NCBI GenBank assembly: GCA_030524925.1
Contig: JAUNFS010000003.1
Coordinates: 2,146-66,145, forward strand
Direction: 5' to 3'
DNA: 64,000 nucleotides
Source of the DNA: a bacterium
GTDB taxonomy: Bacteria; Bacillota_I; Bacilli_A; RF39; UBA660
Each line of letters opens with the position of its first letter. Position 1 is the first letter of the stretch. This document shows, one piece after another, positions 9,052 to 34,698 of this stretch. The notes beneath the pieces are model-generated. The model did no database searches. It was given only the letters and a program-made list of their open reading frames with translations, and was not told the origin of the DNA. A program made the position numbers and the translations under genes.

Positions 9052-9058
9052 AGGAGCC

Positions 9059-9859: not shown

Positions 9860-9885
9860 TTTATCACCTCTTCCCCTTTTTATTC

Positions 9886-15194: not shown

Positions 15195-15303
15195 ATTTGT
15201 TTATATACGAACATTACTTATTATTTAGGTGGGTTCGCTACTTATAAATCATTAAAATAGTGTTCGTTAGAACATTATTTTTTTGTTTCTGGGAGGTTTT
15301 GTT

Positions 15304-15969: not shown

Positions 15970-16123
15970 AATTGGAAATGGAAATAAAATCAAAAATTCT
16001 AATGTAGGCAAAAATAACAAAATTGAAAGCGAACAAACACCAAATAAAATTTTAATAGATATTTTAGTTGGTCTATTCATAACAATAGTTGGTGGGATAA
16101 TTCTATATTTCATAACAAATTAA
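15959..16123 (+). CDS. 54-aa ORF: repeat continuation plus TM helix, probably the frameshifted C-terminus of the AbiTii-like gene
   Basis: Own translation: MKIKIGNGNKIKNSNVGKNNKIESEQTPNKILIDILVGLFITIVGGIILYFITN. Repeats the IGxxNKIxxSNVG unit of the upstream ORF in the next frame. Confidence 0.4.
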   Translation: MKIKIGNGNKIKNSNVGKNNKIESEQTPNKILIDILVGLFITIVGGIILYFITN

Positions 16124-16140
16124 AACGATTAGTTTGTTTT

Positions 16141-16383
16141 CTAATCGTTTTCTTTTTTTATTAAATCATCTAATGTAACACCTAAAGCAACAGATATTCT
16201 ATAAAAGGTATCAACAGAAAAGTTATAACCGGCTTTATCACTTTGAATTTGTCTTATAAAATCGTGAGATAAATCTACCATTTCAGCAAGTTGCATTGAT
16301 GTTATGTTTTTTTCTTTTCTATATTTTCTAATGTTCTTTCTAATGGTATCGTAGATGTTGGCATCAAAAATTAATTTTTCCAT
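16141..16383 (-). CDS. XRE-family helix-turn-helix transcriptional regulator
   Basis: KNITSMQLAEMVDLSHDFIRQIQS HTH. 80 aa. AGGAGG SD. Confidence 0.8.
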   Translation of the reverse strand: MEKLIFDANIYDTIRKNIRKYRKEKNITSMQLAEMVDLSHDFIRQIQSDKAGYNFSVDTFYRISVALGVTLDDLIKKEND

Positions 16384-16397
16384 AATGTTATCTACCT

Positions 16398-16440
16398 CCT
16401 AACATAATTTTAAAGAAATATATCCAAAAAATATGTTAGG
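16398..16440. promoter_or_regulatory. 9-bp inverted repeat (CCTAACATA / TATGTTAGG), candidate operator
   Basis: Left arm overlaps the SD of the XRE gene. Right arm abuts the -35 of the rightward promoter. Confidence 0.35.
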
Positions 16441-16442
16441 TA

Positions 16443-16471
16443 TTGACTAACAACGATGTATGTGATAAAAT
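16443..16471 (+). promoter_or_regulatory. candidate promoter for the 200-aa membrane protein gene
   Basis: TTGACT-N17-TAAAAT. Confidence 0.45.
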
Positions 16472-16506
16472 TAAGTTATCATTAATAATATGATTTTATA
16501 TATGTT

Positions 16507-17109
16507 GTGAGGTGTTTAAAGGTGAAAAAATTCGGTAATATACTAATTGATATTGTATTGGTACTAGCATTTATAATAACTTGTGCTGGTACATTTGCAG
16601 AAAAAAGTGTTGGTTTTGGTGTTGCCACGATAATTATTATTGTATTGTTTATTTTAAATCTTAAAAAAGGTAATCAAGTTGTAGATAGTAAAGAAGTAAA
16701 AGATTTAGATGCTAAATATACAAATAGCAGTTGGCAAAAAATTGGAAGTTATGAAAATGCTTATCTATATATCAACGAAAATGATAAGAAAGTATTAATT
16801 AACAATCACGAATACAATTTTAAAGATATAATTTCTGCCGAAATAATGGAAAATGAAAAAGAACAAACATATACTGCAACAACTCAAAATGCTATATTCA
16901 CAAGGTCTTATAGTAGTGGTTCAAGAACTTATCATTATTGCAGTAAATTACAAGTAAAAATCGTTCTAAATTCAATAACTAGTCCACAAGAATATATTAC
17001 TTTTATAAGTAAAAAGACAAATAAAAATAGTAATAAATATAAAAGTGCTTATGATATGGCACAAAAATTCATATCAACTTTGCAAGTTATTATTAAGAAT
17101 AACCAATAA
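16507..17109 (+). CDS. two-TM membrane protein with C-terminal globular domain (element cargo)
   Basis: Two TM helices, then a ~130-aa soluble domain. Alternative GTG start at 16522 after GAGGTG. No family recognised. Confidence 0.5.
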   Translation: MRCLKVKKFGNILIDIVLVLAFIITCAGTFAEKSVGFGVATIIIIVLFILNLKKGNQVVDSKEVKDLDAKYTNSSWQKIGSYENAYLYINENDKKVLINNHEYNFKDIISAEIMENEKEQTYTATTQNAIFTRSYSSGSRTYHYCSKLQVKIVLNSITSPQEYITFISKKTNKNSNKYKSAYDMAQKFISTLQVIIKNNQ

Positions 17110-17140
17110 ATTAAGTCGTAAAGGCTTAATTTTTTAATTC

Positions 17141-17350
17141 TTATATATAAATGAAAATATATTTATCACTATTGTATTTATTAAAAATATAATCTTGAAG
17201 ATTTGCAATATTATTAAACTTTTTCCCTTTTTCTTCATAATTACTTATTATATACAAATTATTATTTCTAATTATAATGAATACTCCGGGATGCTTTTTA
17301 TCTAAAACTTTACTTTCTATTTTTGATATTCTTCTTTCTAGTGTATTCAT
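17141..17350 (-). CDS. hypothetical small protein (element)
   Basis: 69 aa. ATGA overlap with the upstream HTH gene. Confidence 0.4.
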   Translation of the reverse strand: MNTLERRISKIESKVLDKKHPGVFIIIRNNNLYIISNYEEKGKKFNNIANLQDYIFNKYNSDKYIFIYI

Positions 17351-17730
17351 TTTATATCAAGCCTTTCTTCTATATTATCAATTCTTTTTAATAATTCTAA
17401 TTGTTGATACTGCAAAATTCTATCTAATATAAAAGTAGATGCCTTTAATTGATTATTTTCATTTTCTGCATTATCAAGTATTGATAACAAATTATTTAGA
17501 GCCTTATCGCCTAAAGTATGCAATTTTATTTCTATACTTTGCAAGGCTTGTATTCTTAAATCAATTAATAGTTGTTTGAATACTGGGTCAGTTCGCCATC
17601 TATAAATTGTGTTTTCATCAACTCCAATTTTAGAGGCAACTACTTTGTTATTATCGCCAATTAAAAGTAAAGATAAAGCAGTTTGCTGTTTATCATTTAA
17701 TTTTTTAAAATTCTCTACAAAATTAGTCAT
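17347..17730 (-). CDS. small HTH protein (terminase-small-subunit-like / phBC6A51-type)
   Basis: LLLIGDNNKVVASKIGVDENTIYRWRTDPVFKQLL, an HTH followed by a coiled-coil tail. Confidence 0.5.
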   Translation of the reverse strand: MTNFVENFKKLNDKQQTALSLLLIGDNNKVVASKIGVDENTIYRWRTDPVFKQLLIDLRIQALQSIEIKLHTLGDKALNNLLSILDNAENENNQLKASTFILDRILQYQQLELLKRIDNIEERLDIK

Positions 17731-17784
17731 TTTCTATCATATCCTTTCATTAGTGTATTATTTGTAGAAAATGTAGTTATTGTA

Positions 17785-19521
17785 TTACTTTGTAATAATT
17801 ACATTATCTACACTTTCTACATTTACTACATTCTTTTTAATAGGTATTTTGTAAAAGACTTTTTGTCTTTCACTTTTTCCAGTTAGTTCGTTTTTAACTG
17901 GGTTTGGTGTTGTATAATAACCGATGCCATCATATTTCTTCAATAATGGTTTTATGGGGTCTAACATTGAATTTTTAACTTTATTATCTGCGAGGTTAGA
18001 ATATAATTTTTGCAGTTCTATTCCTAACTCTTTTAAACTACCAGCCCATTTTCCATTATTCTTGTTTACTAAAGTTTTTATAGTATCAACTAAAGGGTTA
18101 TTATTATATTCTTCTAATTCATTTCGCATCACTTTTTCTTCATAAGATGAAATCATCTGCCATTTACAACTTTCTTTATTGAAGTTTAAAATATATTGAT
18201 TTTGGTCTACATCTCTACCAGTAATAGATAAAATAGTTTCTTTATCGTATCTATTTTGTTTATCTAAAACTATTGTTGTATCAGCAGTACCAGTTATACC
18301 ATTTGTTCCGGATACTTTTCCAAAAACATCATTGTCATTGCCTTTTTTAAGATGATGTATTAAAATAATTGCCAAGCCATTTTCATCAGCAAAATCTTTA
18401 ATAGTTCCAACTTCTTTATAATCATTTGCATAATTGTTTTTTCCATTATAATCACTTCTAATTTTTTGAAGTGTATCTATTACTATAACCTTAATATAAG
18501 GTTCTTTTTTTATAATGCTTTTAATCTCATTAATTAAGCCATTTTCTATATCATCACACCTAGTTGCATAAATAAAATTATCTGGTGCTATTTTGCCATC
18601 TAATACCTTATTTAATCTGCTTTTAAGCCTATGTTCGCTATCTTCTAGTGCTAGATATAAGCATCCAGTTTTAAGTGTCTTAAAGCCTAAGAATGGCATA
18701 CCTTTACTAATACTTAAACATAAATCTAAAGCCATCCAACTTTTTCCTATTTTAGGTAAACTGCAAATTAAAGTAAGTCCTTGAGGTATTAAACTATCTA
18801 CATAAAATGTTATTGGTGGTAAATCTTTATCTTGTAATGATTTGGCAGTTGCATATTGAATATTATTTATCTTATCTTTATTTTTAATTTTATTAGTTTC
18901 TTTTTTTAGAGCACTTTTAACAATATTATTTAATTCTGCTTTTTTTAGTTTATCTTCAAAAACAATATTATTAATTATATTTGCTACATCTTTAATATTC
19001 ATTTCCGGATATGTTTCTTTTATTAATAATAGATGCTTATATAAATGGTTGTTTCTAGCATCACCATCAAGCATTCCAGTTAAATTATTTTTTGCTTTAT
19101 ATAATGGATAAAATTGCAATGGTAGTTCTGGTAAATTATCAATATTTAATTCTCTATTCATTTCTCTAGTTTTGCCATTTAATTTAATGACTGCATAGGC
19201 ATTTTTCCCGGTTAAATAATCACATTGAAAGCCTAAAACAGATATTACATCTGTGTTTCTTTTAAAACTATATCCAGTAGGCATTTTATAGTAGTAATGC
19301 TTTCCTTTAGTTGTTTTAACTCTTAAGGTGGGATAGTTTGCATCTATATAATCACATATTATATTTTCATTTATATTGTCATTGTCAAAATCTAAAACAA
19401 TTACATCATCACCAATAATAAGACCAGCATTTTCTAAATTATCAAAAGTAGTTTGATAGTATTGTTGGTTCATTGATTTAATATTAGGTGATTTATCATT
19501 TTTTAGTGGTATAAATTGCAT
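17785..19521 (-). CDS. replication protein: N-terminal Prim-Pol domain fused to RepA/AAA_25-type P-loop ATPase
   Basis: VLDFDND (DxD) and TTKGKHYYYK in the N-domain. Walker A SLPKIGKS. CLYLALEDS. Walker B VIVIDTLQKI. Confidence 0.75.
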   Translation of the reverse strand: MQFIPLKNDKSPNIKSMNQQYYQTTFDNLENAGLIIGDDVIVLDFDNDNINENIICDYIDANYPTLRVKTTKGKHYYYKMPTGYSFKRNTDVISVLGFQCDYLTGKNAYAVIKLNGKTREMNRELNIDNLPELPLQFYPLYKAKNNLTGMLDGDARNNHLYKHLLLIKETYPEMNIKDVANIINNIVFEDKLKKAELNNIVKSALKKETNKIKNKDKINNIQYATAKSLQDKDLPPITFYVDSLIPQGLTLICSLPKIGKSWMALDLCLSISKGMPFLGFKTLKTGCLYLALEDSEHRLKSRLNKVLDGKIAPDNFIYATRCDDIENGLINEIKSIIKKEPYIKVIVIDTLQKIRSDYNGKNNYANDYKEVGTIKDFADENGLAIILIHHLKKGNDNDVFGKVSGTNGITGTADTTIVLDKQNRYDKETILSITGRDVDQNQYILNFNKESCKWQMISSYEEKVMRNELEEYNNNPLVDTIKTLVNKNNGKWAGSLKELGIELQKLYSNLADNKVKNSMLDPIKPLLKKYDGIGYYTTPNPVKNELTGKSERQKVFYKIPIKKNVVNVESVDNVIITK

Positions 19522-19687
19522 CTTTTTTTATCCTTTCTTCATTATTGATTTTTTTCTTCTTTTCATCCTTGCTGGAAAGCCATTTTTTATATTCTTCTTT
19601 GTGATTATCAATATAGGTTGTTACATCATCAACTAAAATGCCAGAGGCAAATTCTTTTATTAGTTCATCACTAATCATAATTTTCAC
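19496..19687 (-). CDS. hypothetical small protein (element)
   Basis: 63 aa, overlaps neighbours on both sides in an operon-like way. Confidence 0.35.
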   Translation of the reverse strand: MKIMISDELIKEFASGILVDDVTTYIDNHKEEYKKWLSSKDEKKKKINNEERIKKDAIYTTKK

Positions 19688-19868
19688 CTGCTTTAATTAA
19701 CTCTTTGGCTTTCTTTTCCCAGAAAGTGGCATTGTGTTTTTTTACTTTATCTGGGTTATTCTTTCGCCAGTTTTTAAAATATAATTTTCTGGCATCATCA
19801 ATTTGCTTAGTTGAATATTTGTTAATAGCATTACTAAATTGTTTTTCATCATTTTTATTATTATTCAT
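19671..19868 (-). CDS. hypothetical small basic protein (element)
   Basis: ATG at 19868 follows AAAGGAGG; the track start 19886 lies upstream of the SD. Confidence 0.4.
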   Translation of the reverse strand: MNNNKNDEKQFSNAINKYSTKQIDDARKLYFKNWRKNNPDKVKKHNATFWEKKAKELIKAGENYD

Positions 19869-19905
19869 ACAAGAGCCTCCTTTCAAATTTTTTTCTTTTA
19901 TTTTC

Positions 19906-19934
19906 TTGCATTTTTTTGAAAAATGATATATTAT
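19906..19934 (+). promoter_or_regulatory. candidate rightward promoter of the element switch region
   Basis: TTGCAT-N17-TATTAT. Confidence 0.4.
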
Positions 19935-19938
19935 ATAA

Positions 19939-19968
19939 ATGTAAAAGTTATTTCCTTTTCTTTTACAT
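19939..19968. promoter_or_regulatory. 9-bp inverted repeat ATGTAAAAG-N12-CTTTTACAT, candidate operator
   Basis: Perfect arms, located between the two face-to-face candidate promoters. Confidence 0.35.
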
Positions 19969-19988
19969 AAGTGAAGTTTAACACAGAA

Positions 19989-20016
19989 ATTATAGAAAAG
20001 GGATAAAAATATACAA
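19989..20016 (-). promoter_or_regulatory. candidate leftward promoter for the replication operon
   Basis: Minus strand TTGTAT-N16-TATAAT. Confidence 0.4.
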
Positions 20017-20070
20017 AAAAAAATATTTGTTAATTTTGATAAATAAATTTCACAAAAAGGAAGGATAATT

Positions 20071-20658
20071 ATGGAAAGAAAAGAGAGAGAAAAAAATCAT
20101 ATTGACCCAGAAGTTATTAAAGAAAATGTTAATAATACAAAATATACAAATGACATTAAGCAAATGTTATTGTGCTTTTCATTAGAACTTAATAGGTTGC
20201 TATATAAAAAAGAAATAAGTCAAGAAGATTTTTCTAAAATAACAAAAATAGGTCAAACAAGTATTTCTAAATATAGAAATGGTACTGCACTACCAAAACA
20301 AGAAAATATTGATATTATTGCAAAGGCTCTTGGAGTATCAAGTGAATATTTAGTTGGTAAAAGCAAAACAAAAGACTATTCATATAATCAATTAAATAAA
20401 TTATTTGGCTTTAATGATGAAACAATTAATAATCTTTCAAGTTGTTTTAACAAAGACTATCTAAATAATATGTTTGGTGGTGAATTAGATAGTATTAATT
20501 ACTTTCTTGAAAGACTAAAAAATTATGTTGATGCCAAAAATGAATATAAAAAAGAAAAAAAGGAATTAAACAAGGCTTGGGATAAAAATAAAATTGATGA
20601 GGCTAAATATTATTTAACAAATTCACTAATTGATTTAATAGATGAAAATTTAAAATAG
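20071..20658 (+). CDS. XRE-family HTH regulator (repressor-like) with C-terminal extension
   Basis: ISQEDFSKITKIGQTSISKYRNGTALPKQENIDIIAKALGVSSEYLVG. AGGAAGGA SD. Confidence 0.75.
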   Translation: MERKEREKNHIDPEVIKENVNNTKYTNDIKQMLLCFSLELNRLLYKKEISQEDFSKITKIGQTSISKYRNGTALPKQENIDIIAKALGVSSEYLVGKSKTKDYSYNQLNKLFGFNDETINNLSSCFNKDYLNNMFGGELDSINYFLERLKNYVDAKNEYKKEKKELNKAWDKNKIDEAKYYLTNSLIDLIDENLK

Positions 20659-20673
20659 AAAGGAGTTTATATT

Positions 20674-22218
20674 ATGAATATTGCACTTTATTTAAGATAT
20701 AGTTCACAAAATCAAACAGAGGCATCTATTGAGGGACAAAGAGAGGTTTGCCAAGAATATGCCAGAGTAAAAAAATATAATATTATATGCGAATATATTG
20801 ACAGAGCCCACTCGGCTACAACAGATAATCGCCCAGAATTCAAAAGAATGATTAAAGATAGTTCTAAAGGTTTATTTGATGCAGTAGTAGTTTATCAATT
20901 TGATAGATTTGCAAGAAATAGATTAGATAGTCAAAAATATAAACAACTTTTAAAGAAAAATAATGTAATGGTTTTATCTGCTCGTGAGGAAATACCAGAA
21001 GATGCTTCTGGTATACTTATGGAAAGTGTTTTAGAGGGGATGGCAGAATATTATAGTGTTGAGTTAGGACAAAAGGTTTCTCGTGGAATGAAAACAAATG
21101 CCAGTAAATGCTATTATAATGGTGGTTCAGTTCCTTTAGGTTTAAAACTAGAGGTTGTAGAAAAAATACAAACATCTGGTAAAATAAAAGAAAAAAAGAA
21201 ATTTGTTATTGATGAAGAAAAAGCCTCTATTATAAAAACTATATTTGAAAAATTTAACAAAGGCGAAAGTATGATTAAAATTATAAATTATCTAAATAAA
21301 TTAGGCATTAAAACAAGCAAAAATAAGCCATTTAATAAAAATAGTATGAGAAGAATATTAGAAAATAAAAAGTATATTGGTATCTATTCTTATGATGGTG
21401 TAGATACTCCAGATGCTATTCCAAGAATAATTAGTGATGATTTATTTTATAAAGTACAAGATAAACTTGGCAAATATAGATGTGCTCCCGGTAGACAAAA
21501 AGCCAGAACGGAATATCTTTTAACAACTAAATTATTCTGTGGTTATTGTGAAAATATGATGGTTGGTGTTGCCGGTACTTCTAAAAATGGTACATTGCAT
21601 AATTACTATACTTGTAAGGGCAGAAAAACTTGTGGATGCAAAAAAGCCAATATCAAGAAAATATACATTGAGGATATAGTTGTAGATATGGCAAGAGAGG
21701 TCTTGACAGATAAAGAAATACCTATTATTGCTAAAAATGTGGTTGAATATGCAGAAAGCCACGATAACAGCGATTTAAAATATTTGCAAGATAAATTAAA
21801 AAATTTAAACAAACAAAATGAAAGTTTAACTAATAGTTTGAAATATTGTGAAGTTGATGCTGTAAGAAAAACAATTATTGATGAAATGACAAAAATTGAA
21901 AATGAAAAAATAAATACTCTTGAGGCAATTAAAGAAGAAGAAAAAAATCATACTTATATTGAATATGACAAAGTAGTATATTTTCTAGAACAAATGAGAA
22001 AAGGCGATATAAACGATATGAGGTATAGACAAAGACTTATAAATTGCTTTATTAATAAGGTGTTCTTATGGGATGATAAAATTATTACTACTTTTAATAT
22101 TAAAAAAAGTGATATTTCTACTAAATTGCCTAATTTAAAAGACTTGGAGTGTTCGTTTGAAGTTTCAAATGGTGCACCATTGATAAATTTGTTCGGACTA
22201 TTCGGACTTTATATATAG
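20674..22218 (+). CDS. large serine recombinase (resolvase/invertase N-domain, recombinase domain, zinc ribbon, coiled coil)
   Basis: IALYLRYSSQNQ...IEGQ catalytic Ser region. VVVYQFDRFARN. CGYC...YYTCKGRKTCGC zinc ribbon. 514 aa. Confidence 0.9.
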   Translation: MNIALYLRYSSQNQTEASIEGQREVCQEYARVKKYNIICEYIDRAHSATTDNRPEFKRMIKDSSKGLFDAVVVYQFDRFARNRLDSQKYKQLLKKNNVMVLSAREEIPEDASGILMESVLEGMAEYYSVELGQKVSRGMKTNASKCYYNGGSVPLGLKLEVVEKIQTSGKIKEKKKFVIDEEKASIIKTIFEKFNKGESMIKIINYLNKLGIKTSKNKPFNKNSMRRILENKKYIGIYSYDGVDTPDAIPRIISDDLFYKVQDKLGKYRCAPGRQKARTEYLLTTKLFCGYCENMMVGVAGTSKNGTLHNYYTCKGRKTCGCKKANIKKIYIEDIVVDMAREVLTDKEIPIIAKNVVEYAESHDNSDLKYLQDKLKNLNKQNESLTNSLKYCEVDAVRKTIIDEMTKIENEKINTLEAIKEEEKNHTYIEYDKVVYFLEQMRKGDINDMRYRQRLINCFINKVFLWDDKIITTFNIKKSDISTKLPNLKDLECSFEVSNGAPLINLFGLFGLYI

Positions 22219-22245
22219 AATCAATCGCATGATTGATTTTTTTTT
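22219..22245 (+). terminator. rho-independent terminator after the recombinase gene
   Basis: AATCAATC-GCAT-GATTGATT followed by T7. Confidence 0.6.
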
Positions 22246-22266
22246 ATAAAACGAAAAAATCATGAA

Positions 22267-22479
22267 ATGGTTGAATTATATTATAATATAAGACAGACAA
22301 TAAATGAGCTTATTGATGAGTATAATTTAGAAAAATCACAAAACGAAATAATTAAATCTTTTTCTAATAAACTTACAAAACAATTTGGGCAAGGTTTTAG
22401 TGTTCCAAGTTTAAAGAAGATGAAAAAATTTTATCAAGTATTTAACGGTGGTTCCACACTGTGGAACCACTTGAAATAA
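22267..22479 (+). pseudogene. internal fragment of a DUF1016 (YhcG-like PDDEXK nuclease) gene
   Basis: ELYYNIRQTI...IIKSFSNKLTKQFGQGFSVPSLKKMKKFYQVF resembles the LYWEIG...LSKDL..EFG.GFS..NL..MR.FY N-domain. The nuclease domain is missing. Confidence 0.4.
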
Positions 22480-22722
22480 AAATCACAAATTCGGGAAAAT
22501 ATGAATAATTAAGTAGCATTAAATTATTGCTACTTTTTCTATTCTTTGGTAAAAAATGTATAGTGATTGATTTTTTTGTTTATGATAATTTATAATAACA
22601 AGTGCAACACCAGCTGATGTAATTGAAATTTAACTTAGAAATAAAGTGATTTTTTCTTTTTTATTTGTACTTTGATTTACTCAGCATTTAATATATGTTA
22701 TATTATAATCAAGGGAGGTCAA

Positions 22723-23023: not shown

Positions 23024-23052
23024 CAAAAGAAAAAATCTCCGAAGAGATTTTG
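23024..23052 (-). terminator. rho-independent terminator closing the seven-gene operon
   Basis: Minus strand AAATCTC-TTCG-GAGATTT followed by a T-rich tract, 10 nt after the stop at 23062. Confidence 0.55.
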
Positions 23053-23061
23053 ATTTGTTTG

Positions 23062-23394
23062 TTAATTACAGTTCCAAGGTTCTAAGACACAATCTTGGCA
23101 TTTTTGGAAATTACTTGCTGGCATTTCACGATAACCATTAATTGTACTAAATAACCACATAACGATTGTTGGTACAAAGAAAATTAATACACCGGCAATA
23201 GCACGATACATTAAACTCTTACTAGCCTTCTTAATGTCATCTTCTTTACCACCTACTACGGCTTTTCCTAAATCAAACATTCCATATCCAATAATTAATA
23301 ATGGAATAGCTATTTTAAATACTGTTAGTATCCAACCTACAAATCCTAAAACGTCTGCTGCTTGATCACAAAAACCAGTTATATTCATACTCAC
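23062..23394 (-). CDS. 110-aa two-TM protein, VirB2/TrbC-pilin-like topology, Cys-rich tail
   Basis: TM1 VLGFVGWILTVFKIAIPLLIIGYGMF. Basic loop DLGKAVVGGKEDDIKKASKSLMYR. TM2 AIAGVLIFFVPTIVMWLF. Tail FQKCQDCVLEPWNCN. Confidence 0.5.
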   Translation of the reverse strand: MSMNITGFCDQAADVLGFVGWILTVFKIAIPLLIIGYGMFDLGKAVVGGKEDDIKKASKSLMYRAIAGVLIFFVPTIVMWLFSTINGYREMPASNFQKCQDCVLEPWNCN

Positions 23395-23446
23395 ATCTCC
23401 CTTACATACTTAAATTCTATATGAATTTATGGTAATTGTCAACAAA

Positions 23447-24562
23447 TTATTTAAATATACCAAAAATTCTACTGCCTTCTTGTCTACTAAAACCTAGTTT
23501 TACAAGAAGTCTATCTACTGCTAACAATCTATCTGCCCTGTCGTTAATGACTGGCATGTTATAGAAGACTTTAAATTTTGTTTCATATTCAAAATTTGTT
23601 AGTTCTTCATCTTTGATAGCGCTTTGATTTAATATTATTTTTCCATCTTTGACTTTTTCACGTAAATTGTTATCTTTTTTTAAAGCTTTATTTAAACTAA
23701 TGATACCTGGATTAACTAAGTATAGTATATCCGTACATAGTTGTTTTTCTGGTAAATCATTTAAATCTATTAATACAATATCAATATTTCTAAGTGCATT
23801 TATTTTGAATCTTAATTCTTCTACTGATGTACAAAAAGAAATATCTTGATCATTAAAGTAGATAGAATCTTGTTTAAACATTTCAAAAGCAATTACTTTA
23901 TAATTGGCTTTCAATTGTTTTAACATCATGTGCATTAGAGTTGTTGCACCAGCATGGTCTGTGACATTTTGAAGACCAATGATTCTAGCTCTAACTTTAA
24001 TTTGTTCTTCTTCTCTAACATAGTCTACATTACTAAATACGTTAGGATTAGTAAATGCAGGTCTATATTCATCATTATTAAGATTTACATTACTATTTGG
24101 ATTAGCAATGTATGATTGATTACCAAAAGAATTTGGTGAAGCACTTACAGTTTGATTCATCATATTTTGATTTTGATAAGATGATTCACTTAAATACTTT
24201 TTAACATTATCTAATGTATTTGGATGATTTAATAAATAATTTATTCCAGCAGCATTTCTAGTAAAGTTATAATAACCGTTTTCAACTAAATATCTTAGAT
24301 AATTATTACTACTGACAAGTTCACTATCATTAAGAAGTATAATTACTTTTGATGCTGGAAAGAAACTTAAAAAGTTTAAAACCTCTTTAATATCAAAATA
24401 ATTCTTAATTGCTGTTATATCAATTATTGCTTTACTATATATAAAGTTAGATAACTGACTTTCTAGCATATCTCTAGTAAACTCACCACTTAAAGTTTTA
24501 ATGGTATCTAAATTAGCACTATCAATGATAATTCCATTAAGATTTTTTATTGCAATATACAT
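23447..24562 (-). CDS. TadZ/CpaE-like protein: receiver-like N-domain, Asn/Gln-rich linker, MinD/ParA-like domain with degenerate P-loop
   Basis: N-domain IIDITAIKN...KVIILLND...LVENGYYNF. Linker SYQNQNMMNQTVSASPNSFGNQSYIANPNSNVNLNN. IIGLQNVTDHAGATT replaces xKGGxGKT. VLIDLN is Walker-B-like. Confidence 0.5.
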   Translation of the reverse strand: MYIAIKNLNGIIIDSANLDTIKTLSGEFTRDMLESQLSNFIYSKAIIDITAIKNYFDIKEVLNFLSFFPASKVIILLNDSELVSSNNYLRYLVENGYYNFTRNAAGINYLLNHPNTLDNVKKYLSESSYQNQNMMNQTVSASPNSFGNQSYIANPNSNVNLNNDEYRPAFTNPNVFSNVDYVREEEQIKVRARIIGLQNVTDHAGATTLMHMMLKQLKANYKVIAFEMFKQDSIYFNDQDISFCTSVEELRFKINALRNIDIVLIDLNDLPEKQLCTDILYLVNPGIISLNKALKKDNNLREKVKDGKIILNQSAIKDEELTNFEYETKFKVFYNMPVINDRADRLLAVDRLLVKLGFSRQEGSRIFGIFK

Positions 24563-24570
24563 TTAATCAC

Positions 24571-25047
24571 CTAATTCCATCCTGGTACTTCATCTTTGGC
24601 AAAGTATATAGGTTTAGTTTCACCTGATATAGGAAATGTAAATATTTCACCTAATATTGGTAGATCTACTCTAAAAAAGACGGTTACTTTGTAATAACTT
24701 TTTTTGATATTACCACTATCGTCAACGGTTTTAGCAACGCAATATCTATATTTGGTTGCATCTGCGGCATAGGGATCAAACCCGCTTACAAGAGTGCCGT
24801 CACCTTGTTCAGTTAGATTTTTAGGACATTTGCTATATACTAAATAACCAACTGTTGATAAATAATCTTTAATTTCTTGTTGACTATCATCACTAAGTCC
24901 CTCTTTTTTTTCAATGATATTTACGATACCATTTTTAACCTTAAATGCCTTAGAGTAATTAATTGAAAGCGCTAAAAAGCTTGAAAATAAAACTATAAAA
25001 ACTAAAACAATTGTTAAAAGCCAAGTTCCACCAATTGCTTCTCTCAT
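24571..25047 (-). CDS. TadE-like pseudopilin candidate (158 aa)
   Basis: MREAIGG, hydrophobic TWLLTIVLVFIVLFSSFLAL, then SINYSKAFKVKNGIVN, which resembles the post-TM block of TadE-family proteins. Confidence 0.5.
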   Translation of the reverse strand: MREAIGGTWLLTIVLVFIVLFSSFLALSINYSKAFKVKNGIVNIIEKKEGLSDDSQQEIKDYLSTVGYLVYSKCPKNLTEQGDGTLVSGFDPYAADATKYRYCVAKTVDDSGNIKKSYYKVTVFFRVDLPILGEIFTFPISGETKPIYFAKDEVPGWN

Positions 25048-25062
25048 TTATATTATTGCTTT

Positions 25063-25311
25063 CTAATTAGTGTCCTTATTTGGGCATTGAACAGATTGTG
25101 GATTAGTGCAATTGTCATCTTGACAATAAAGGCAACTACACATTTTTGCTCCTGACGTACAATTACAACTAAAGGCTTGTGTACACTTTGTACTCCTTGT
25201 GATATTTGACTTAATTGATGGCCATATTAATGTAGTAAATACTACTCCTATTGCGGCGATTGCTACTACTGCTACTGCAGTCATACTTAATTCGCCTGAT
25301 GCTTCTTTCAT
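25063..25311 (-). CDS. 82-aa Flp/pilin-like protein with Cys-rich C-terminal module
   Basis: MKEASGE, then LSMTAVAVVAIAAIGVVFTTLIW, then 8 Cys in the last 40 residues. Strong SD TAGGAGGA. Own promoter. Confidence 0.55.
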   Translation of the reverse strand: MKEASGELSMTAVAVVAIAAIGVVFTTLIWPSIKSNITRSTKCTQAFSCNCTSGAKMCSCLYCQDDNCTNPQSVQCPNKDTN

Positions 25312-25336
25312 TTTTTATTCCTCCTATCTTAAAATA

Positions 25337-25365
25337 ATTATAATATAGTTTAACTTCTAAATCAA
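25337..25365 (-). promoter_or_regulatory. consensus-like sigma-A promoter for the 82-aa pilin candidate
   Basis: Minus strand TTGATT-N17-TATAAT, about 25 nt upstream of the SD. Confidence 0.55.
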
Positions 25366-25372
25366 TATTTAT

Positions 25373-25404
25373 GTAAAAAAAAGATAACAATTTCTTGTTA
25401 TCTT
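25373..25404 (-). terminator. rho-independent terminator/attenuator after the 153-aa gene
   Basis: Perfect 10-bp stem AAGATAACAA/TTGTTATCTT with a 4-nt loop, followed on the minus strand by T8. The stop codon lies in the stem. Confidence 0.6.
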
Positions 25405-25859
25405 GAACTAATACCTGTACGATCTGGGAAGTATGTACTTGGCTTATTCTTACTATTATGGGCATCTTCTAAAATGCCATCAATTTTGTTTACTACAGCA
25501 TAATTTTCTTGGGTACTCTCAACGTTGAATGAGCCAGTCACGGTTGCTACTTTAACACTTACTTTTGGTGGTGCTTCATATATATCATAGAAAGATATTT
25601 TGTAGTTTTTATTAATATTTATGGTTTCTGAAAATCTTCTAATAAAGTTTTCTACAAATTTTTCTTTAATAATTCTTATTTCCCCGTACTTACGATAATG
25701 AGCTAAATCTAATGAATCTCCTAGAGCTGCATCTGTTATTTCTTTAATTAAATATACGTCTTGTTCGTTAGTGGTTGAATAGTTTTGTAAGATTAGCATT
25801 ATTCCTAGAATACCTAGTCCAAAAACTATAATCCAATATCCCCATACACTTTCTTTCAT
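25398..25859 (-). CDS. pseudopilin-like protein (153 aa)
   Basis: MKESVWG, hydrophobic YWIIVFGLGILGIMLIL, then a soluble domain. AGGAGGTG SD. Confidence 0.5.
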   Translation of the reverse strand: MKESVWGYWIIVFGLGILGIMLILQNYSTTNEQDVYLIKEITDAALGDSLDLAHYRKYGEIRIIKEKFVENFIRRFSETININKNYKISFYDIYEAPPKVSVKVATVTGSFNVESTQENYAVVNKIDGILEDAHNSKNKPSTYFPDRTGISSR

Positions 25860-25874
25860 TTACTTTTGCACCTC

Positions 25875-28800
25875 CTATGGATAGATAATACTATCATCGT
25901 CAATATTTACGTCTGGATAGCCGTCTGGCAATAACTGTCTCATTGTACCTACTTTAAATTGATTATCGCTAGCAAAATAGTATTTGTACTTTTGTCTACC
26001 AGATGTATTACTTGCATATCTTGTAACAAAGCTACTTATACATTCTTTGCCATCACTGTTACAGCTAAATAAGCCGCCTGAATAGCCACTGCTCCAGTCA
26101 TAGTAGTTACTATTCTTATTATATTTCTTGATTTCTTGCATTGTTTTAGTATCTAAATTAAATACATATTCAAGAGTTTCGGAATCTGGTGTATCGTCAA
26201 ACATTCCGTCTTTTAAACCAATTTGCTTGATTCGGCTTTCAGCTGCCTCGCCTTTGGCATTTGACCAGTTATCACCTAAATCTCCACTATCTTTACGATT
26301 ATTTGGATCCATGTTGCTAGGATTTATAGTTCTATAAATGTATTCTGGATAGAAATCTTCGCTTTCTCTTCCATCGCAATCAGGTCCTTGACAGCACTCC
26401 GCTCCAAAACAACAAGTAGGACAATCACGGTCGTATAGCACCTCTCTATTACAATATACACATAAACTTTCAAATACGTTTCCTTCTGCTAATTTTTGAT
26501 TTATACGATATTGTACATTAGATTCATTTTTACTTTTACCCTTAGGCTCTATTTCTAAGTGGCCATTATTTTCAATTGTAAACCAAGTTCTATATTTACC
26601 TTGATAATTTGTTATTTGTACATTAAATACATAACCTATTTCTAAAACATCAGGATAACTATAACTTTGCTGGTCAGTAATATATAAACCGCTTGGTACT
26701 AAGCTATAGTAGCCAACTGTTGGTTTATAGTATAGGTCAGCTTTACCAGTTTTTTCACTGTCAGCTTCTCCTCTATCTGTTTCCTCAACATTTTCATAAG
26801 CTGTGTTATAACCTTTTGAATAATCATTTGCTCCTAATTTTCCATAAAGAGGGCCTTCATGCTTACCGCTTGTATCTTTGTAATTTACATTTGTACTATT
26901 TGTTGTTGCTCCAGATGTATTTGGAAGTGTACTTACATGTGTCCAATATTTGCCATCTGATTCTACAGATTTAACAAACTCTACTTCTTGCTCTACAACT
27001 TTAGTATTACCACTTACTGAATCGTAGTATTGTTGCGTATATGTAAATGATAGATCAGGATCTAAAATATATTTCCATGAATTTTTAAAATTACTATTAG
27101 CTTTTTGACAAGAAGTCTTTTTTTCTTCTAGGCCTTGACGTTTTTCGTATGCTTTAACATATGCGTTATGAGCACCTACAACATTTGTTGATGGTTTTGG
27201 TGACACGGCGCAAATTTGTGATGTTGTCCATGAAACAGTTTCTTTTCCTCTTACTCCACTATTGTAAACACCATAATAATAATCATCTTGGGTTCTACCT
27301 GTATATGTAATATATTTTTCTTGTGACCAGCCTAAGCAATGATTATCTTCAGGGTCACGACCACCAGAACAATACCAACAACTGGAATTCATTGGGTGAC
27401 TTGCAGAATCATCTATTGCATCTTGCAGATTAGCTTCTTTTTGCCATGCATCAAATTTTGCCTTTTCATCTCTTACAGCAGCAAGATAATCTCTTTGCCA
27501 TACGTCGTAAGCTGTATAGAAGAAGGCAGTGATTTCACCTTTAACTTCTGGCTGAGAATATTGTCCATCGGAGTCTTTAGTAAATACGAAGAATCTACCA
27601 CTTGTAGATGCAGTTGTCATTGGGTAAATCATGTGATTATTCTCTGTTGTATAAAGTTTGCAATATTCGTTTGTTTCAATATTATTATTGTTATTGAATG
27701 TTTTATCACGCCAGTATTGCATTGCATTTTTTGTATAGTTTTGAAAGCTATCTAAAGTTGCTTGATTATTCATAACTTTATCTTCATATTTTTTTAATTT
27801 GCTCAATAATCCATCACGATTTACTTGTTCTACAGATGAATCTGATGGCATTTGGTTTACTGTTGAGCCATCTGACGCACATTCGCCTTGACAATCCATT
27901 ATTAAATTAACATGGTCTTGATCTTTGCATTGTTCATTATAAATTTCTTCTTGAGATTTTGAAAGATTGAAATTTTCAAGTCCTTCACAACATCCTGCGT
28001 TAATGTATTCTTCTATAGTTGCGTTTTTATTCCCTAATTTTAATTGGCCATTTTCATATTTACATACATTTGGTAGAGTGATGTCTAAGTCAAATGTTAG
28101 TTTGTGATGCATGCTGTCTAAGTAGCCAACCATTCTTTGGTTTGATTCATTTGGGCTTTCTACTAATAAGCCTACGCCTGATGCTCCAAATGGGAAGAAA
28201 TATTTATAGTCAATTTCAACTGTTATTTTAGGATTTGAAGCTATTTCTTCATAACTTCCGTATACTTCTAGTTCAAATGTATCATCGCCATTTAACAAGT
28301 CTGTTCCTTCAGAAATGTTTGCTTTGCACTCACCTTTTGAACAGCTTACTTTTTCAAAGGTTATTTCTGGGTTTAGATATGCAAGGCCATAACTTGAGAT
28401 TGCATTTTTAATATCCTCAATACCTTCAACTTTTACTTTTACTTTTTTATGGTAGCCGTATGATGAACCAGGAACATCTTCTGGAGTTCCGTCTACGACA
28501 AATTCTATATTATAATCTTTGGTTTCTGCTGTATAAATTCCTCCGTAGCCACTTAAAAATGTTCTACAGAAAGCACTTGAGCCACCTGCTAGTTTACCAG
28601 CACAGTAGATTGCTTGAGATGCTTGGTAGTTTTGGTCAGTCTTAAGTGTTGGAAATTTAGGATATTTAGGTTCTAAACCTTCAAAAGCGTTAGCTCCATT
28701 AATATATTTTTCAATGCTTTCCCATTCAGCTCCACCACTTTTGCCATAACCTAGGCCGGCATTAAAAAATCTTACTGCGGTATTGATATCAATATAATCT

Positions 28801-29156
28801 ACAGAATTTTTTTCTGCCAAATAGATTTGATGCATCTTTATAAGTCCAGCATCATAACCACCATTATCAACTGATAACTCTTTACCATAATATAATGTTT
28901 TAGGAGTGTTTCTGTTTGGGTCAATACAATATAAGTCAACTTCAGTGCCTTCAATTGTTGTTTTGTGATGCCAGCTAGTTGTTGTATATCCATCAGTAAA
29001 TACATAACCAGTAGTTTCTGTTGGGTTATCTGTAAGAGGAGTTTCTAATAAACAGTAGCCATTAGCTGCTGAAGGTCTGCCATCACATATACCATTTGAG
29101 GCATCAACATTTATAGTTACAAATAAAAGAGATATTAATAATAGATACTTCTTCAT
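25875..29156 (-). CDS. 1093-aa secreted Cys-rich protein, N-terminal thioester-domain-like region, no cell-wall sorting signal
   Basis: Signal peptide MKKYLLLISLLFVTINVDAS. LYCIDPNRNTP...NSVDYIDINTAVRFF parallels the adhesin motif at 12089-12223. About 29 Cys, including CPTCCFGAECCQGPDC. C-terminus lacks LPxTG and a TM. Confidence 0.6.
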   Translation of the reverse strand: MKKYLLLISLLFVTINVDASNGICDGRPSAANGYCLLETPLTDNPTETTGYVFTDGYTTTSWHHKTTIEGTEVDLYCIDPNRNTPKTLYYGKELSVDNGGYDAGLIKMHQIYLAEKNSVDYIDINTAVRFFNAGLGYGKSGGAEWESIEKYINGANAFEGLEPKYPKFPTLKTDQNYQASQAIYCAGKLAGGSSAFCRTFLSGYGGIYTAETKDYNIEFVVDGTPEDVPGSSYGYHKKVKVKVEGIEDIKNAISSYGLAYLNPEITFEKVSCSKGECKANISEGTDLLNGDDTFELEVYGSYEEIASNPKITVEIDYKYFFPFGASGVGLLVESPNESNQRMVGYLDSMHHKLTFDLDITLPNVCKYENGQLKLGNKNATIEEYINAGCCEGLENFNLSKSQEEIYNEQCKDQDHVNLIMDCQGECASDGSTVNQMPSDSSVEQVNRDGLLSKLKKYEDKVMNNQATLDSFQNYTKNAMQYWRDKTFNNNNNIETNEYCKLYTTENNHMIYPMTTASTSGRFFVFTKDSDGQYSQPEVKGEITAFFYTAYDVWQRDYLAAVRDEKAKFDAWQKEANLQDAIDDSASHPMNSSCWYCSGGRDPEDNHCLGWSQEKYITYTGRTQDDYYYGVYNSGVRGKETVSWTTSQICAVSPKPSTNVVGAHNAYVKAYEKRQGLEEKKTSCQKANSNFKNSWKYILDPDLSFTYTQQYYDSVSGNTKVVEQEVEFVKSVESDGKYWTHVSTLPNTSGATTNSTNVNYKDTSGKHEGPLYGKLGANDYSKGYNTAYENVEETDRGEADSEKTGKADLYYKPTVGYYSLVPSGLYITDQQSYSYPDVLEIGYVFNVQITNYQGKYRTWFTIENNGHLEIEPKGKSKNESNVQYRINQKLAEGNVFESLCVYCNREVLYDRDCPTCCFGAECCQGPDCDGRESEDFYPEYIYRTINPSNMDPNNRKDSGDLGDNWSNAKGEAAESRIKQIGLKDGMFDDTPDSETLEYVFNLDTKTMQEIKKYNKNSNYYDWSSGYSGGLFSCNSDGKECISSFVTRYASNTSGRQKYKYYFASDNQFKVGTMRQLLPDGYPDVNIDDDSIIYP

Positions 29157-29854
29157 TATAATACACGCTTCTTTCTATAAATTATCACACCTACTACACC
29201 ACCAGCTATTAAAACTGTTCCCCCAATTATGTATAGATAATTTTCTTTTAAGAACTTTAAAAACTTATTTTCTTTAGTTGGATCAGCATCGCCGTCTTTG
29301 CCATTTTCTATCTCTGTTATTTTATTTACTATTTGAGTAATATCCATGTCTACTTCTTTAGTAACAAAAGTTTGACAGTATGGTAAGTCTTCATGCCCTT
29401 TACATACTAAATATTCTGAATAAGGATTATATTTTGGTTTAGTAAATGAAAAACTTCTTAATCTTTTTCTACCGCAATTTTCAGTGCTTGAATATACAAT
29501 AATGTCATAAGATATGATATTATCTTGATCTTCTGATGTTATTGTATATTTACCATTTTCAGTATCACTGTAATATATTGATTTTTTTTCTTTGGTTTTA
29601 GAGTCAGTTACTTCTAATGATAAATTTTCAGTTATATTATAAAAAGATATAATAAAGTTATAACTTATTTGCTCGTACTCGCCACCGCCTTCACTAGTAA
29701 CTTTATTTTTGATTTCTTTTAATTCATAATTTGCTTGTACTAGTGCTGCTTCTTTATTTAGATTTGCTTGTTCTTTGTATGAACATTCAGCGGCATAAAC
29801 GTTAACATAAAAAAACAATAAAGGTATTAATATTTTAAAATATTTCACATCCAT
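29156..29854 (-). CDS. signal-peptide protein with C-terminal TM anchor (about 230 aa)
   Basis: KYFKILIPLLFFYVNVYA-AEC signal. C-terminal YIIGGTVLIAGGVVGVIIYRKKRVL. Start is ambiguous (ATG 29854 or GTG 29848 after AGGTGA). Stop overlaps the next start (ATGA). Confidence 0.55.
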   Translation of the reverse strand: MDVKYFKILIPLLFFYVNVYAAECSYKEQANLNKEAALVQANYELKEIKNKVTSEGGGEYEQISYNFIISFYNITENLSLEVTDSKTKEKKSIYYSDTENGKYTITSEDQDNIISYDIIVYSSTENCGRKRLRSFSFTKPKYNPYSEYLVCKGHEDLPYCQTFVTKEVDMDITQIVNKITEIENGKDGDADPTKENKFLKFLKENYLYIIGGTVLIAGGVVGVIIYRKKRVL

Positions 29855-29870
29855 CACCTATCCTATGACA

Positions 29871-29899
29871 AGTATAGCATAACTAAGTGTCATTTTCAA
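29871..29899 (-). promoter_or_regulatory. candidate promoter of the seven-gene operon
   Basis: Minus strand TTGAAA-N17-TATACT. Confidence 0.5.
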
Positions 29900-31376: not shown

Positions 31377-31607
31377 ATGTATTACAATTATCAAAATTAT
31401 CCTAATATGAGTGGTGAAAGACAATTTTGGTTTCCTTTTTTACTTGGAGGACTTGGTGGAGCTGCTGTAGTATCTGCTTCTAGACCAAGACCAGTGTATG
31501 CTGTAAATAATATGCCATACCAAGGTAATTATCAAATGCCACCTACTATGCCACCTTATGGATATAATTACTATGGAGGATATAATTATTATCCACCTTA
31601 TAGATAA
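31377..31607 (+). CDS. 76-aa Tyr/Pro/Asn/Gly-rich protein with one central hydrophobic segment
   Basis: GAGAGGAG SD. MYYNYQNYPN...FWFPFLLGGLGGAAVV...PPYGYNYYGGYNYYPPYR. Confidence 0.45.
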   Translation: MYYNYQNYPNMSGERQFWFPFLLGGLGGAAVVSASRPRPVYAVNNMPYQGNYQMPPTMPPYGYNYYGGYNYYPPYR

Positions 31608-33738: not shown

Positions 33739-34698
33739 TTATTCGTAAACTTTATTAAAATATTCTTTAATCTTGTTAGTATTAATTGTTTTTTTATTTT
33801 CAGTATTAGTCCATGGTTCTTCGTCATGAGTTAAATTAATCAAGGTTCCAGCTTCCATCTGTCCATAGCTTGATACAACTAATTCTATTATTTTTTTTAG
33901 ACCATCACATATAATACAACTTGCTTTTGGCGTAGAAATTGGGTTACGTCCTTTGTATTTTTGATAAATGGCTTCTATTACTGGGCCATACTGCCACGCA
34001 ACTATATTATCGGAATATGCTGGTTTATCATAAATCCTTAGGGTTAATCCCTGTATATAATATAATAATTTTTGAAGTTTTAATGGCGTAATGTATTCTG
34101 CTTTAGCACAGTTATCTTCTATTCCATATTTTTTGCTAACGTTATCTATTTGTGTGTTATATTCAATAATTAACCAATTAGCAACATTGTCAACTGTTTC
34201 TGTTTTGAAATCCAAATTAATATAGTCATTAATATTAAAATTCGCAATTTTATGATGTTTTAATTTTTTTAAGGCAATAACTTTATTTAGAAATTTATTA
34301 AAGTCATTATTTGATAAATTATTTTGATTTTTAATAAGTAAATTATACATTATATCAGGATCTTCACTTAATTTAATAATTGAATCAACTGATTCGGTTT
34401 GAATAGAACCATTTTCAAAACGATGAATGGTAATTTCTCCAACGCCAATTGCTAAAGCAAATTCTTTTTGATTCATATCATATTTTTTTCTTATATCTTT
34501 TATTTCTGATGATGTTAATAAATTCACTTGCTTTTTATAGAGATCATATAACCTCGTATCATTTTCAATTTCAATATTTCTATCAAATATTTCTTCACCT
34601 GTTACTGGGTCAATTTTGTAATATTCTTCAAATTCTATATTGATACCCTTAACATTTGCTTCTACTTTTCTTATTTTAACATTTTCTCTTTTATCCAT
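33739..34698 (-). CDS. antitoxin: MqsA-like N-terminal/HTH region fused to a Panacea (DUF4065/SocA) domain
   Basis: IRKKYDMNQKEFALAIGVGEITIHRFENGSIQTESVDSIIKL aligns by eye to the MqsA HTH. LKLQKLLYYIQG...AWQYGPVIEAIYQKYKG is the DUF4065 core. Confidence 0.65.
   Translation of the reverse strand: MDKRENVKIRKVEANVKGINIEFEEYYKIDPVTGEEIFDRNIEIENDTRLYDLYKKQVNLLTSSEIKDIRKKYDMNQKEFALAIGVGEITIHRFENGSIQTESVDSIIKLSEDPDIMYNLLIKNQNNLSNNDFNKFLNKVIALKKLKHHKIANFNINDYINLDFKTETVDNVANWLIIEYNTQIDNVSKKYGIEDNCAKAEYITPLKLQKLLYYIQGLTLRIYDKPAYSDNIVAWQYGPVIEAIYQKYKGRNPISTPKASCIICDGLKKIIELVVSSYGQMEAGTLINLTHDEEPWTNTENKKTINTNKIKEYFNKVYE

Follow-up and report, generated by a model that had tools for sequence, protein, structure and literature searches.

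We examined a 64,000-nucleotide stretch of contig JAUNFS010000003.1 (assembly GCA_030524925.1; the whole stretch is hereafter called the window) from a bacterium of the RF39 lineage, and within it a cluster of seven minus-strand genes whose products resemble parts of a Tad/Flp-type surface filament (Table 1). The window has a G+C content of ∼ 28% and carries ordinary chromosomal genes (among them rpe, rsgA, pknB, PP2C, rlmN, fmt, ackA, thiI, polA, fpg, ezrA, RNase J and cotE). The initial annotation described the cluster as an unplaceable apparatus that lacks a motor; in related genomes these genes either form part of a complete Tad-like cluster or immediately precede a VirB4/VirD4 type IV secretion system (T4SS).

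Table 1. Genes and signals of the cluster in the order of transcription (window coordinates; TM, transmembrane; U_B and P, gene modules defined in the text)
Feature	Coordinates	Strand	Remarks
Promoter-like TTGAAA-N17-TATACT	29871-29899	-	Upstream of 233-aa gene; 10/12 positions, TG extension
233-aa protein gene	29156-29857	-	Signal peptide and C-terminal TM anchor; first gene of U_B
1093-aa protein gene	25875-29156	-	Secreted, Cys-rich; putative fibre-associated adhesin; U_B
153-aa DUF5411 protein gene	25398-25859	-	N-terminal TM helix (MKESVWGYW...); last gene of U_B
Junction between U_B and P	25366-25464		Site of the motor module in relatives
Promoter TTGATT-N17-TATAAT, then AGGAGG ribosome-binding site	25337-25365	-	Serves 82-aa gene
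82-aa Flp-like gene	25063-25311	-	Candidate major pilin; first gene of P
158-aa pilin-like gene	24571-25047	-	Candidate minor pilin; P
371-aa TadZ-like gene	23447-24562	-	P
Promoter TTGACA-N17-TAGAAT	23414-23442	-	Of 110-aa gene; 11/12 positions match
110-aa VirB2-like gene	23062-23394	-	Two TM segments, Cys-containing tail; last gene of P
Intrinsic-terminator-like hairpin AAAAUCUC-UUCG-GAGAUUUU and U-run	23024-23051	-	z = -4.6 vs shuffles

All seven open reading frames (ORFs) were recovered at the coordinates first assigned to them. They are co-directional and tightly packed, with intergenic gaps of 15, 86, 15, 8 and 52 nt, and the first two genes overlap at 29156 by one base (TAATG), not by the ATGA originally reported; the start of the 233-aa gene may instead be the ATG at 29854. 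The boundary signals that had been proposed fared differently. The hairpin (stem-loop proper 23051-23032, followed by the U-run) folds far better than shuffled sequences and stands as a terminator-like element, while the TTGAAA-N17-TATACT upstream of the cluster is indeed present, but promoter-like matches in this AT-rich DNA occur at chance density (49 found versus 43.3 ± 6.0 expected from shuffled sequence). As for signals inside the cluster, almost every related locus keeps TTGAT[AT]-N17-TATAAT with the AGGAGG 5′ of its first Flp-like gene, and many have TTGACA-N17-TA[GA]AAT 5′ of the VirB2-like gene (L007, L015-L018, L003, L055, L064 and L081; L-numbers denote loci of relatives and P-numbers their proteins). 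The cluster, first taken for a single operon, probably comprises three transcription units, because other species retain these two internal promoters, one for the 82-aa gene and one for the 110-aa gene. The conserved promoter also predicts that the 82-aa pilin candidate is probably expressed strongly and separately.

The translations themselves reveal the signal peptides, the C-terminal TM segment and the hydrophobic N-termini. The 1093-aa protein contains 29 cysteines and has no domain match in Pfam, NCBIfam or PHROGs. Its homologues are limited to the window's species and to the group of UMGS1021, the nearest relative; it is 75% identical between the window and strain L007 and 37% identical to the UMGS1021 orthologue. 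The centre of the gene (27110-27463) has no nucleotide similarity to L007 at all, while its flanks are ∼ 85% identical, and represents a hypervariable cassette in the putative adhesin. Such divergence between strains is typical of an exposed, diversifying surface protein. The 153-aa protein belongs to DUF5411 (Pfam PF17424; 184.1 bits against a cut-off of 30, E = 1.4e-54, residues 1-132 on a profile of 134 positions) and is 77% identical to its UMGS1021 orthologue. The 110-aa protein, in which two hydrophobic segments are visible, scores 26.0 bits against PF18895 (T4SS_pilin; cut-off 26.6). Its family supports the VirB2-like label it had been given, since 20 of 30 members match this profile at E ≤ 0.1 (best 8.7e-6); it carries four cysteines and is 84% identical to the UMGS1021 protein. 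With DUF5411 at 184 bits and T4SS_pilin at the borderline, the view that none of the seven proteins can be placed in a named family no longer holds. NCBIfam and PHROGs added nothing for the seven proteins, and PHROG matches were zero.

The 82-aa protein (8 of its 82 residues are cysteines) comes from a family in which the N-terminus, MKEA[ST]GEL (MKEA[ST]GELSMT...), is invariant; a hydrophobic helix comes next, and the tail is Cys-rich. Its identity is 63-73% in relatives in which that of the TadZ-like protein is 45-50%. The 158-aa protein, whose family comprises 1489 clusters at 50% identity, was predicted by AlphaFold (predicted local distance difference test, pLDDT, 81) to consist of an N-terminal helix of 43 residues (5-47), a second helix and a four-stranded sheet. 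Several longer members of the family (P0437, P0460, P0462, P0464, P0468, P0481 and P0486; 328-489 aa) carry C-terminal Listeria-Bacteroides/InlB B-repeats (PF09479); they look like pilin-like modules fused to adhesin repeats and resemble modular pilins. The 82-, 158- and 153-aa families share the N-terminus M-[KR]-E-[AS]-x-x-G followed by a hydrophobic helix. Of the prepilin/TadE-like N-termini that had been ascribed to these three proteins, their hydrophobic character is confirmed and the match to a prepilin motif or to the Pfam Flp and TadE profiles is not.

For the 371-aa protein, the architecture proposed at the outset (receiver-like plus MinD/ParA-like, as in TadZ/CpaE) is borne out. In the AlphaFold model (pLDDT 76) a disordered linker (residues 127-188) connects a receiver-like α/β N-domain to a C-domain of MinD/ParA fold; Foldseek matches the C-domain to HypB, MinD, FlhG, BcsQ and ParA, and aligns both domains with Eubacterium rectale TadZ (3fkq). 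The P-loop position, described at the outset as dead, reads HAGATT and lacks the Walker-A lysine. We examined and rejected the idea that this marks decay after loss of a motor: HAG[AS]TT without the lysine is found in every one of ∼ 90 family members and is identical in loci that contain motors. All 743 homologues are from metagenome-assembled genomes (MAGs) of uncultured “Bacilli”, “Tenericutes” or “Mollicutes”. Sequence-profile searches against the PDB were empty for the TadZ-like, the 158-aa and both platform-like families (see below).

Relatives were collected by a genome scan with one genome per species (97 relatives, of which 80 loci were read, together with contig look-ups and local phmmer annotation) and by a metagenome scan with an ATPase profile (80 loci); ∼ 170 related loci were compared. 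The loci are built from recurrent modules. Module P encodes the ∼ 80-aa Flp-like, ∼ 150-aa pilin-like, TadZ-like and VirB2-like proteins. Module U_B encodes a 233-aa-like anchored protein, a secreted protein of ∼ 1100-1270 aa and DUF5411. Module M is a motor, with a CpaB-like protein (matching PF16976, RcpC/CpaB, and TIGR03177), a CpaF/VirB11-like ATPase of the T2SSE family with an invariant, intact Walker A (GETGSGKTE) and two polytopic proteins of ∼ 300 and 262 aa. Module T contains VirB6-like, small, TraC-like (185 aa) and VirB4 proteins, an M23/lysozyme hydrolase, further proteins and a type IV coupling protein (T4CP). Module U_A, finally, encodes proteins of ∼ 1000-1300, 200 and 380 aa (cadherin-like), then a VirB2-like protein. 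Type-B loci have the order U_B-M-P, at times followed by T, and type-A loci have the order U_A-P-T between dnaB/dnaI and core genes. In type-B loci the 233-aa homologue stands first, the ∼ 1100-1270-aa protein fills the position of the 1093-aa protein, and the 82-aa homologue adjoins the TadC-like gene.

The Tad/Flp flavour of the cluster is thereby substantiated: in 34 of the 80 genome loci and in most of the 80 metagenome loci, homologues of its genes surround the CpaB-like gene, the T2SSE-family ATPase gene and the two polytopic genes, with M exactly between U_B and P. Co-conservation, for which a neighbourhood check had been proposed, holds for the P genes in almost all relatives: beside the TadZ-like gene, in loci with enough flank, we found the Flp-like gene in 70/74, the 158-like gene in 72/74 and the VirB2-like gene in 58/74 cases. 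It does not extend to the U_B genes in the type-A loci L003, L005 and L010. The window's 82-, 158-, 371- and 110-aa proteins have counterparts there (45-73% identity, BLASTP); none was found for the 233-, 1093- and 153-aa proteins. Among the 39 loci with both flanks long enough, 16 have VirB4 alone within 10 kb, 10 have CpaF alone, 11 have both and two (L056 and L058) have neither. The latter, from rabbit-gut MAGs, contain a P module with duplicated Flp-like and pilin-like genes, with no CpaF-like or VirB4 gene within 10 kb on either side. Motor-only loci also exist (L129-L131), as does a U_A-M locus (L122).

The most informative comparison is with UMGS1021. Upstream of U_B its locus L121 has the same genes as the window, for FtsW, a metallophosphoesterase and a CAAX protease (products 41-58% identical to the window's), and at this syntenic site its 233-aa orthologue is 46% identical. 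U_B-M (L121, at 49-70 kb) and U_A-P-T (L015, at 112-133 kb) appear to lie on one and the same 582,527-bp contig, ∼ 62 kb apart. Nucleotide homology to L121 extends from window position 29996 to 25464 and homology to L015 from 25366 to 23015, the latter taking in everything from the 82-aa promoter to the terminator behind the 110-aa gene; the P proteins are 64-84% identical to those of the UMGS1021 group. Because the homology breaks at 25464 and 25366 and ends at 23015, we read the window as U_B joined to P, with M absent at the ∼ 100-nt junction and T absent after the terminator. The initial annotation had named a divided Tad locus, or a conjugation module, as the finding that would overturn its picture. 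Part of this is seen in relatives, whose loci unite the same genes with a Tad-type motor or a T4SS, and in UMGS1021, with M at the syntenic site and the pilin module ∼ 62 kb distant.

The absence of motor genes from the locus and from the rest of the window, reported at the outset, was confirmed; a fibre would thus have to draw its power from elsewhere in the genome, or would not be assembled. The relatives' CpaB-like, CpaF-like, both polytopic, VirB6-like, VirB4, T4CP and other proteins gave zero matches at E ≤ 0.1 when the entire window was searched in all six reading frames. In Pfam scans that covered nearly all window ORFs of ≥ 90 aa, no component of a type IV filament or T4SS was detected; neither a CpaF/TadA ATPase nor a TadB/TadC platform was found in the window, nor an A24 prepilin peptidase (TadV) in the scanned ORFs. 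VirB4, T4CP, the VirB6-like channel and the cell-wall hydrolase, which adjoin the P module in relatives, are likewise not in the window. Attempts to recognize the motor of the window's species among other contigs failed. VirB4 could not be assigned by an identity gap, since it is 85-92% identical in all lineages; the candidates P0283 and P0269 come from other species, with complete P-T4SS loci; and L122 (dnaB-dnaI-U_A-M), considered as the missing motor locus, has only ∼ 66% nucleotide identity.

One explanation is loss of the motor. The species would then no longer have the CpaB-like, CpaF-like and platform-like genes, nor the T4SS, and the remainder would either act without polymerization, for example as a membrane-anchored complex presenting the 1093-aa adhesin, or be a leftover on its way to decay. 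The junction resembles a clean excision of M, no motor is encoded within the 64 kb, and the window's species, the only one in which DUF5411 is not followed by motor genes, has this layout in two strains. Loss is also plausible in a lineage of small genomes (relatives' contigs reach ∼ 1.15 Mb; a closed chromosome has 1.52 Mb). The second strain, L007 (TadZ-like protein 90% identical, contigs of 176-200 kb), allowed us to measure selection as the ratio of non-synonymous to synonymous substitution rates (dN/dS) between it and the window. With dS of 0.24-0.85, dN/dS was 0.07 (233 aa), 0.22 (1093 aa), 0.03 (DUF5411, 153 aa), 0.34 (82 aa), 0.14 (158 aa), 0.08 (371 aa) and 0.05 (110 aa), compared with 0.055-0.15 for flanking housekeeping genes. 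All seven genes are under purifying selection. As M and T are missing from the locus in both strains, it is the layout without a motor that has been exposed to this selection. Decay is not under way, because the ORFs are intact and dN/dS is like that of housekeeping genes; the conserved promoters are kept as well, and no pilin-like or TadZ-like protein is known to function without platform and ATPase (established type IV filament knowledge; PMC6668835). We consider loss of the motor unlikely, but it has to be taken seriously.

A second possibility is that the P module is an accessory of a chromosomal VirB4/VirD4 T4SS encoded elsewhere, for instance forming or positioning a contact pilus. The P modules most similar to the window's (64-84% identity) immediately precede VirB6-like, VirB4, hydrolase and T4CP genes, in UMGS1021 as in > 30 other species, and CpaF is missing within 10 kb of them; the final gene of P is VirB2-like, and the 11 of 39 fully flanked loci with both motors combine them in one super-cluster. 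Against this, 10 of the 39 fully flanked loci pair P with a CpaF-type motor and have no VirB4 within 10 kb, UMGS1021 has a Tad-type motor elsewhere on the same contig (so that proximity to a T4SS does not have to imply reliance on it), TadZ and CpaB are Tad-specific parts (PMC6668835), and VirB4 and T4CP are not in the window. We regard a pure T4SS accessory as rather improbable.

The T4SS itself has features of its own. Beside P in L013/L012, L015 and L094-L100 it is chromosomal, located between dnaB/dnaI and core genes, and contains several VirB2-like (PF18895) genes; a relaxase was not detected in the clusters adjoining P in relatives. Its 596-aa VirB4 (> 7200 relatives) keeps 85-92% identity between lineages in which that of the TadZ-like protein is 45-66%, and its separate 185-aa protein matches the N-terminal part of the VirB4 of a mycoplasma integrative and conjugative element (NF045975). 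L012 (10001-20867) and L043 have a second, paralogous cluster with a 320-aa TadZ-like paralogue, small proteins of 202, 84 and 145 aa, a LysM protein, a lysozyme-like protein and a 1544-aa FtsK/SpoIIIE protein.

The cluster had been assigned an accessory context on account of an adjacent integrated element. This island (15195-22610) lies at the 3′ end of tRNA-Leu and encodes AbiTii, AAA_25 (DnaB-like), helix-turn-helix (HTH) regulators, a large serine recombinase and a DUF1016_N fragment; the sequence flanking tRNA-Leu recurs as an 83-bp copy at 22174-22251. It is strain-specific and missing from both L007 and L008. We considered whether the serine-recombinase island had cut the operon in two and rejected the idea: L007 has no island and the same gene set and downstream genes, which identifies the island as an unrelated insertion that truncated nothing. 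The locus itself is chromosomal and syntenic with UMGS1021 (FtsW, metallophosphoesterase, CAAX protease), and the island is a separate insertion. That the seven genes are cargo of a mobile element (a prophage tail, a conjugative element or the island) could be argued from the position of the serine-recombinase island, 60-450 nt away, and from the VirB2-like gene. We think it very improbable, given that the island (∼ 15195-22610) is missing in L007 while the seven genes and both flanks are conserved, that there are zero PHROG matches, that the locus is syntenic with a relative's chromosome, and that relaxase, VirB4, T4CP and integrase are not part of the cluster.

We therefore favour, at roughly an even chance, a model in which the cluster is the non-motor part (adhesin, pilin and targeting) of a clade-specific, modular Tad-like (type IVc-related) pilus whose motor acts in trans. 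A split system is the likeliest arrangement because the nearest relative is split likewise, motor-only and P-only loci exist, and selection maintains the genes. According to this model the TadZ-like protein would mark the assembly site, and a CpaF/TadBC-type motor encoded elsewhere in the chromosome would build a thin fibre by polymerizing the 82-aa protein. Priming or decoration of the fibre may fall to the 158-aa and DUF5411 proteins, and the 1093-aa and 233-aa surface proteins may confer strain-variable adhesion. Gene content, module homology, synteny, the junction, purifying selection and the TadZ-like fold are seen directly in the data. Both the formation of a fibre and the action of a motor in trans are steps that we infer. 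The pilin role of the small proteins is suggested by their genomic context and topology, not by profiles.

A number of observations weigh against the split-system model. The motor of the window's species was not found in the 64-kb window, and in every other species seen CpaB-like and CpaF-like genes come after DUF5411; their absence here fits loss as well as relocation. Its P module is most similar to P modules that adjoin a VirB4 T4SS, not a Tad-type motor. The pilin candidates are atypical: the canonical motif G/xxxxE[YF] is absent from the 82-, 158- and 153-aa proteins, which match neither Flp nor TadE profiles; none of 35 members of the 82-aa family matches Pfam Flp at E ≤ 0.1, and EY is lacking; the 158-aa model has no significant fold match in the PDB (Foldseek, best E-value 0.4); and hhalign finds the DUF5411, 82-aa and 158-aa families unrelated beyond a weak match over 23 N-terminal residues (E = 0.0013, probability 18%). 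The motor module is itself ambiguous. Its ATPase scores equally well against VirB11 and TadA in NCBIfam, and the two polytopic proteins are TadB/C-like by position and topology only; they match no Pfam, NCBIfam or PDB entry and are unrelated to each other by hhalign. Lastly, the A24 motif G.GD[VAILFM]K is absent from all loci, although a regular-expression search is a weak test and the prepilin peptidase may be shared with another system elsewhere in the genome (PMC6668835).

On a further reading the P module would be a portable filament cassette (∼ 2.35 kb, promoters and terminator included) on which two unrelated motors can act, the CpaF-type Tad motor and the VirB4-type T4SS; in the window's species the motor would then be non-adjacent, non-canonical or absent. 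The Flp-like protein would in that case have a short leader or none, and a prepilin peptidase may not be needed, because none is encoded in the ∼ 170 loci examined. We put this forward tentatively and consider it improbable.

Among characterized systems, type IVc Tad/Flp pili (Aggregatibacter tad, Caulobacter cpa, Bifidobacterium breve tad) are the obvious reference. The relatives' clusters share with them a CpaB/RcpC-like protein, a CpaF/TadA-family ATPase, two platform-sized polytopic proteins, a two-domain TadZ-like protein, and a small protein with a hydrophobic N-terminus under its own strong promoter together with larger pilin-like proteins. The window differs in having no ATPase, platform or CpaB, and TadV was not seen in any locus (by the weak motif test). 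Its pilin candidates lack the G/xxxxE[YF] motif and the Flp and TadE profiles, and one has a Cys-rich tail; DUF5411, the VirB2-like protein and the 233-aa and ∼ 1100-aa surface proteins are extra parts, and the TadZ-like protein lacks the Walker-A lysine. TadZ proteins have an atypical Walker A and act as a localization and recruitment hub (PMC6668835). The 371-aa protein shares this trait and the two-domain architecture with E. rectale TadZ (3fkq), but there is no sequence-level match, the query-normalized TM-score (TMq) is 0.32, the orientation of the domains differs, and the linker of the 371-aa protein is long and disordered.

The closest precedents are two Tad-like clusters of gut Firmicutes, both described computationally. 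The only paper we found that mentions DUF5411 (Miller et al., 2022; PMC9523054) predicts for Roseburia, Ruminococcus and Eubacterium a secretion operon in which it occurs together with CpaF and PilC/GspF. That operon resembles the present system in combining DUF5411 with a CpaF-type ATPase; an Internalin-B-like protein is present there, and InlB B-repeats occur here in the 158-aa family. It differs in being clostridial, in including its motor, in being a computational prediction only, and in that no association with TadZ-like or VirB2-like proteins was reported (PMC9523054). The TANB77 gut clade has a Tad-like cluster with CpaB, TadZ/CpaE, TadA, TadBC and unrecognizable pilins (Nat Commun 2024; PMC11680825). 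It too belongs to uncultured gut Firmicutes and encodes, after these genes, several short N-terminal-TM proteins, unrecognizable by sequence, each with its own promoter; the lineage and protein families are different, TadBC is fused, the motor is in the cluster, and DUF5411, a VirB2-like protein and a T4SS neighbour are lacking. Monoderm T4SSs of MPF_FATA (mating-pair formation) type and the relaxase-less, VirB2-array T4SS of Patescibacteria (PMC12102498) are comparable to the relatives' arrangement, in which P abuts a VirB4/T4CP/VirB6-like/hydrolase cluster with several PF18895 genes and no detected relaxase. The window retains only the VirB2-like gene and none of that machinery.

The system appears typical of uncultured, small-genome, spore-forming gut Bacilli. 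It is a widespread, uncharacterized surface apparatus built from shuffled modules (adhesins, a Tad-type motor, the pilin/TadZ cassette and a chromosomal T4SS), and gut Tad-like pilins have been reported to affect host immunity (TANB77; PMC11680825). Among the layouts seen, that of the window's species (UMGS1372) alone fuses the adhesin module to the pilin module and has neither motor at the locus, with selection still maintaining the seven genes. Should its motor be encoded elsewhere, this would be a clear example of a split type IV filament system; should it be absent, pilin-like and TadZ-like proteins would have a motor-independent role. If P is indeed a portable cassette, it would lend itself, as a naturally occurring case, to tests of motor-filament promiscuity across type IV filaments and type IV secretion. 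The explanation of the missing motor is most probably mundane; the modularity and the association of Tad with T4SS are unusual.

The window contains further genes of interest outside the cluster. A sortase-dependent pilus locus at 7432-12406, encoding a 614-aa SpaA-domain protein, two sortases (230 and 539 aa) and unannotated neighbours, represents a second, unrelated surface-fibre system 10 kb away. A homologue of CotE, the outer spore coat protein E, is encoded at 62118-62630, and the organism is probably a spore former, despite the ‘Tenericutes’ label on related MAGs. The 674-aa product of 42182-44206 is a signal-anchored, Ser/Thr/Asn-rich extracellular protein with no Pfam match; its homologue in L122 (12904-14835; 50% identity) directly follows the TadC-like gene. 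Between the FtsW gene and rpe lies a gene for a SocA/Panacea-domain, antitoxin-like protein with HTH and MqsA-like regions (33739-34698). The 76-aa ORF at 31377-31607, also called as a gene in L007 and L008, is extremely rich in Tyr, Pro, Gly and Asn and has a central hydrophobic stretch.

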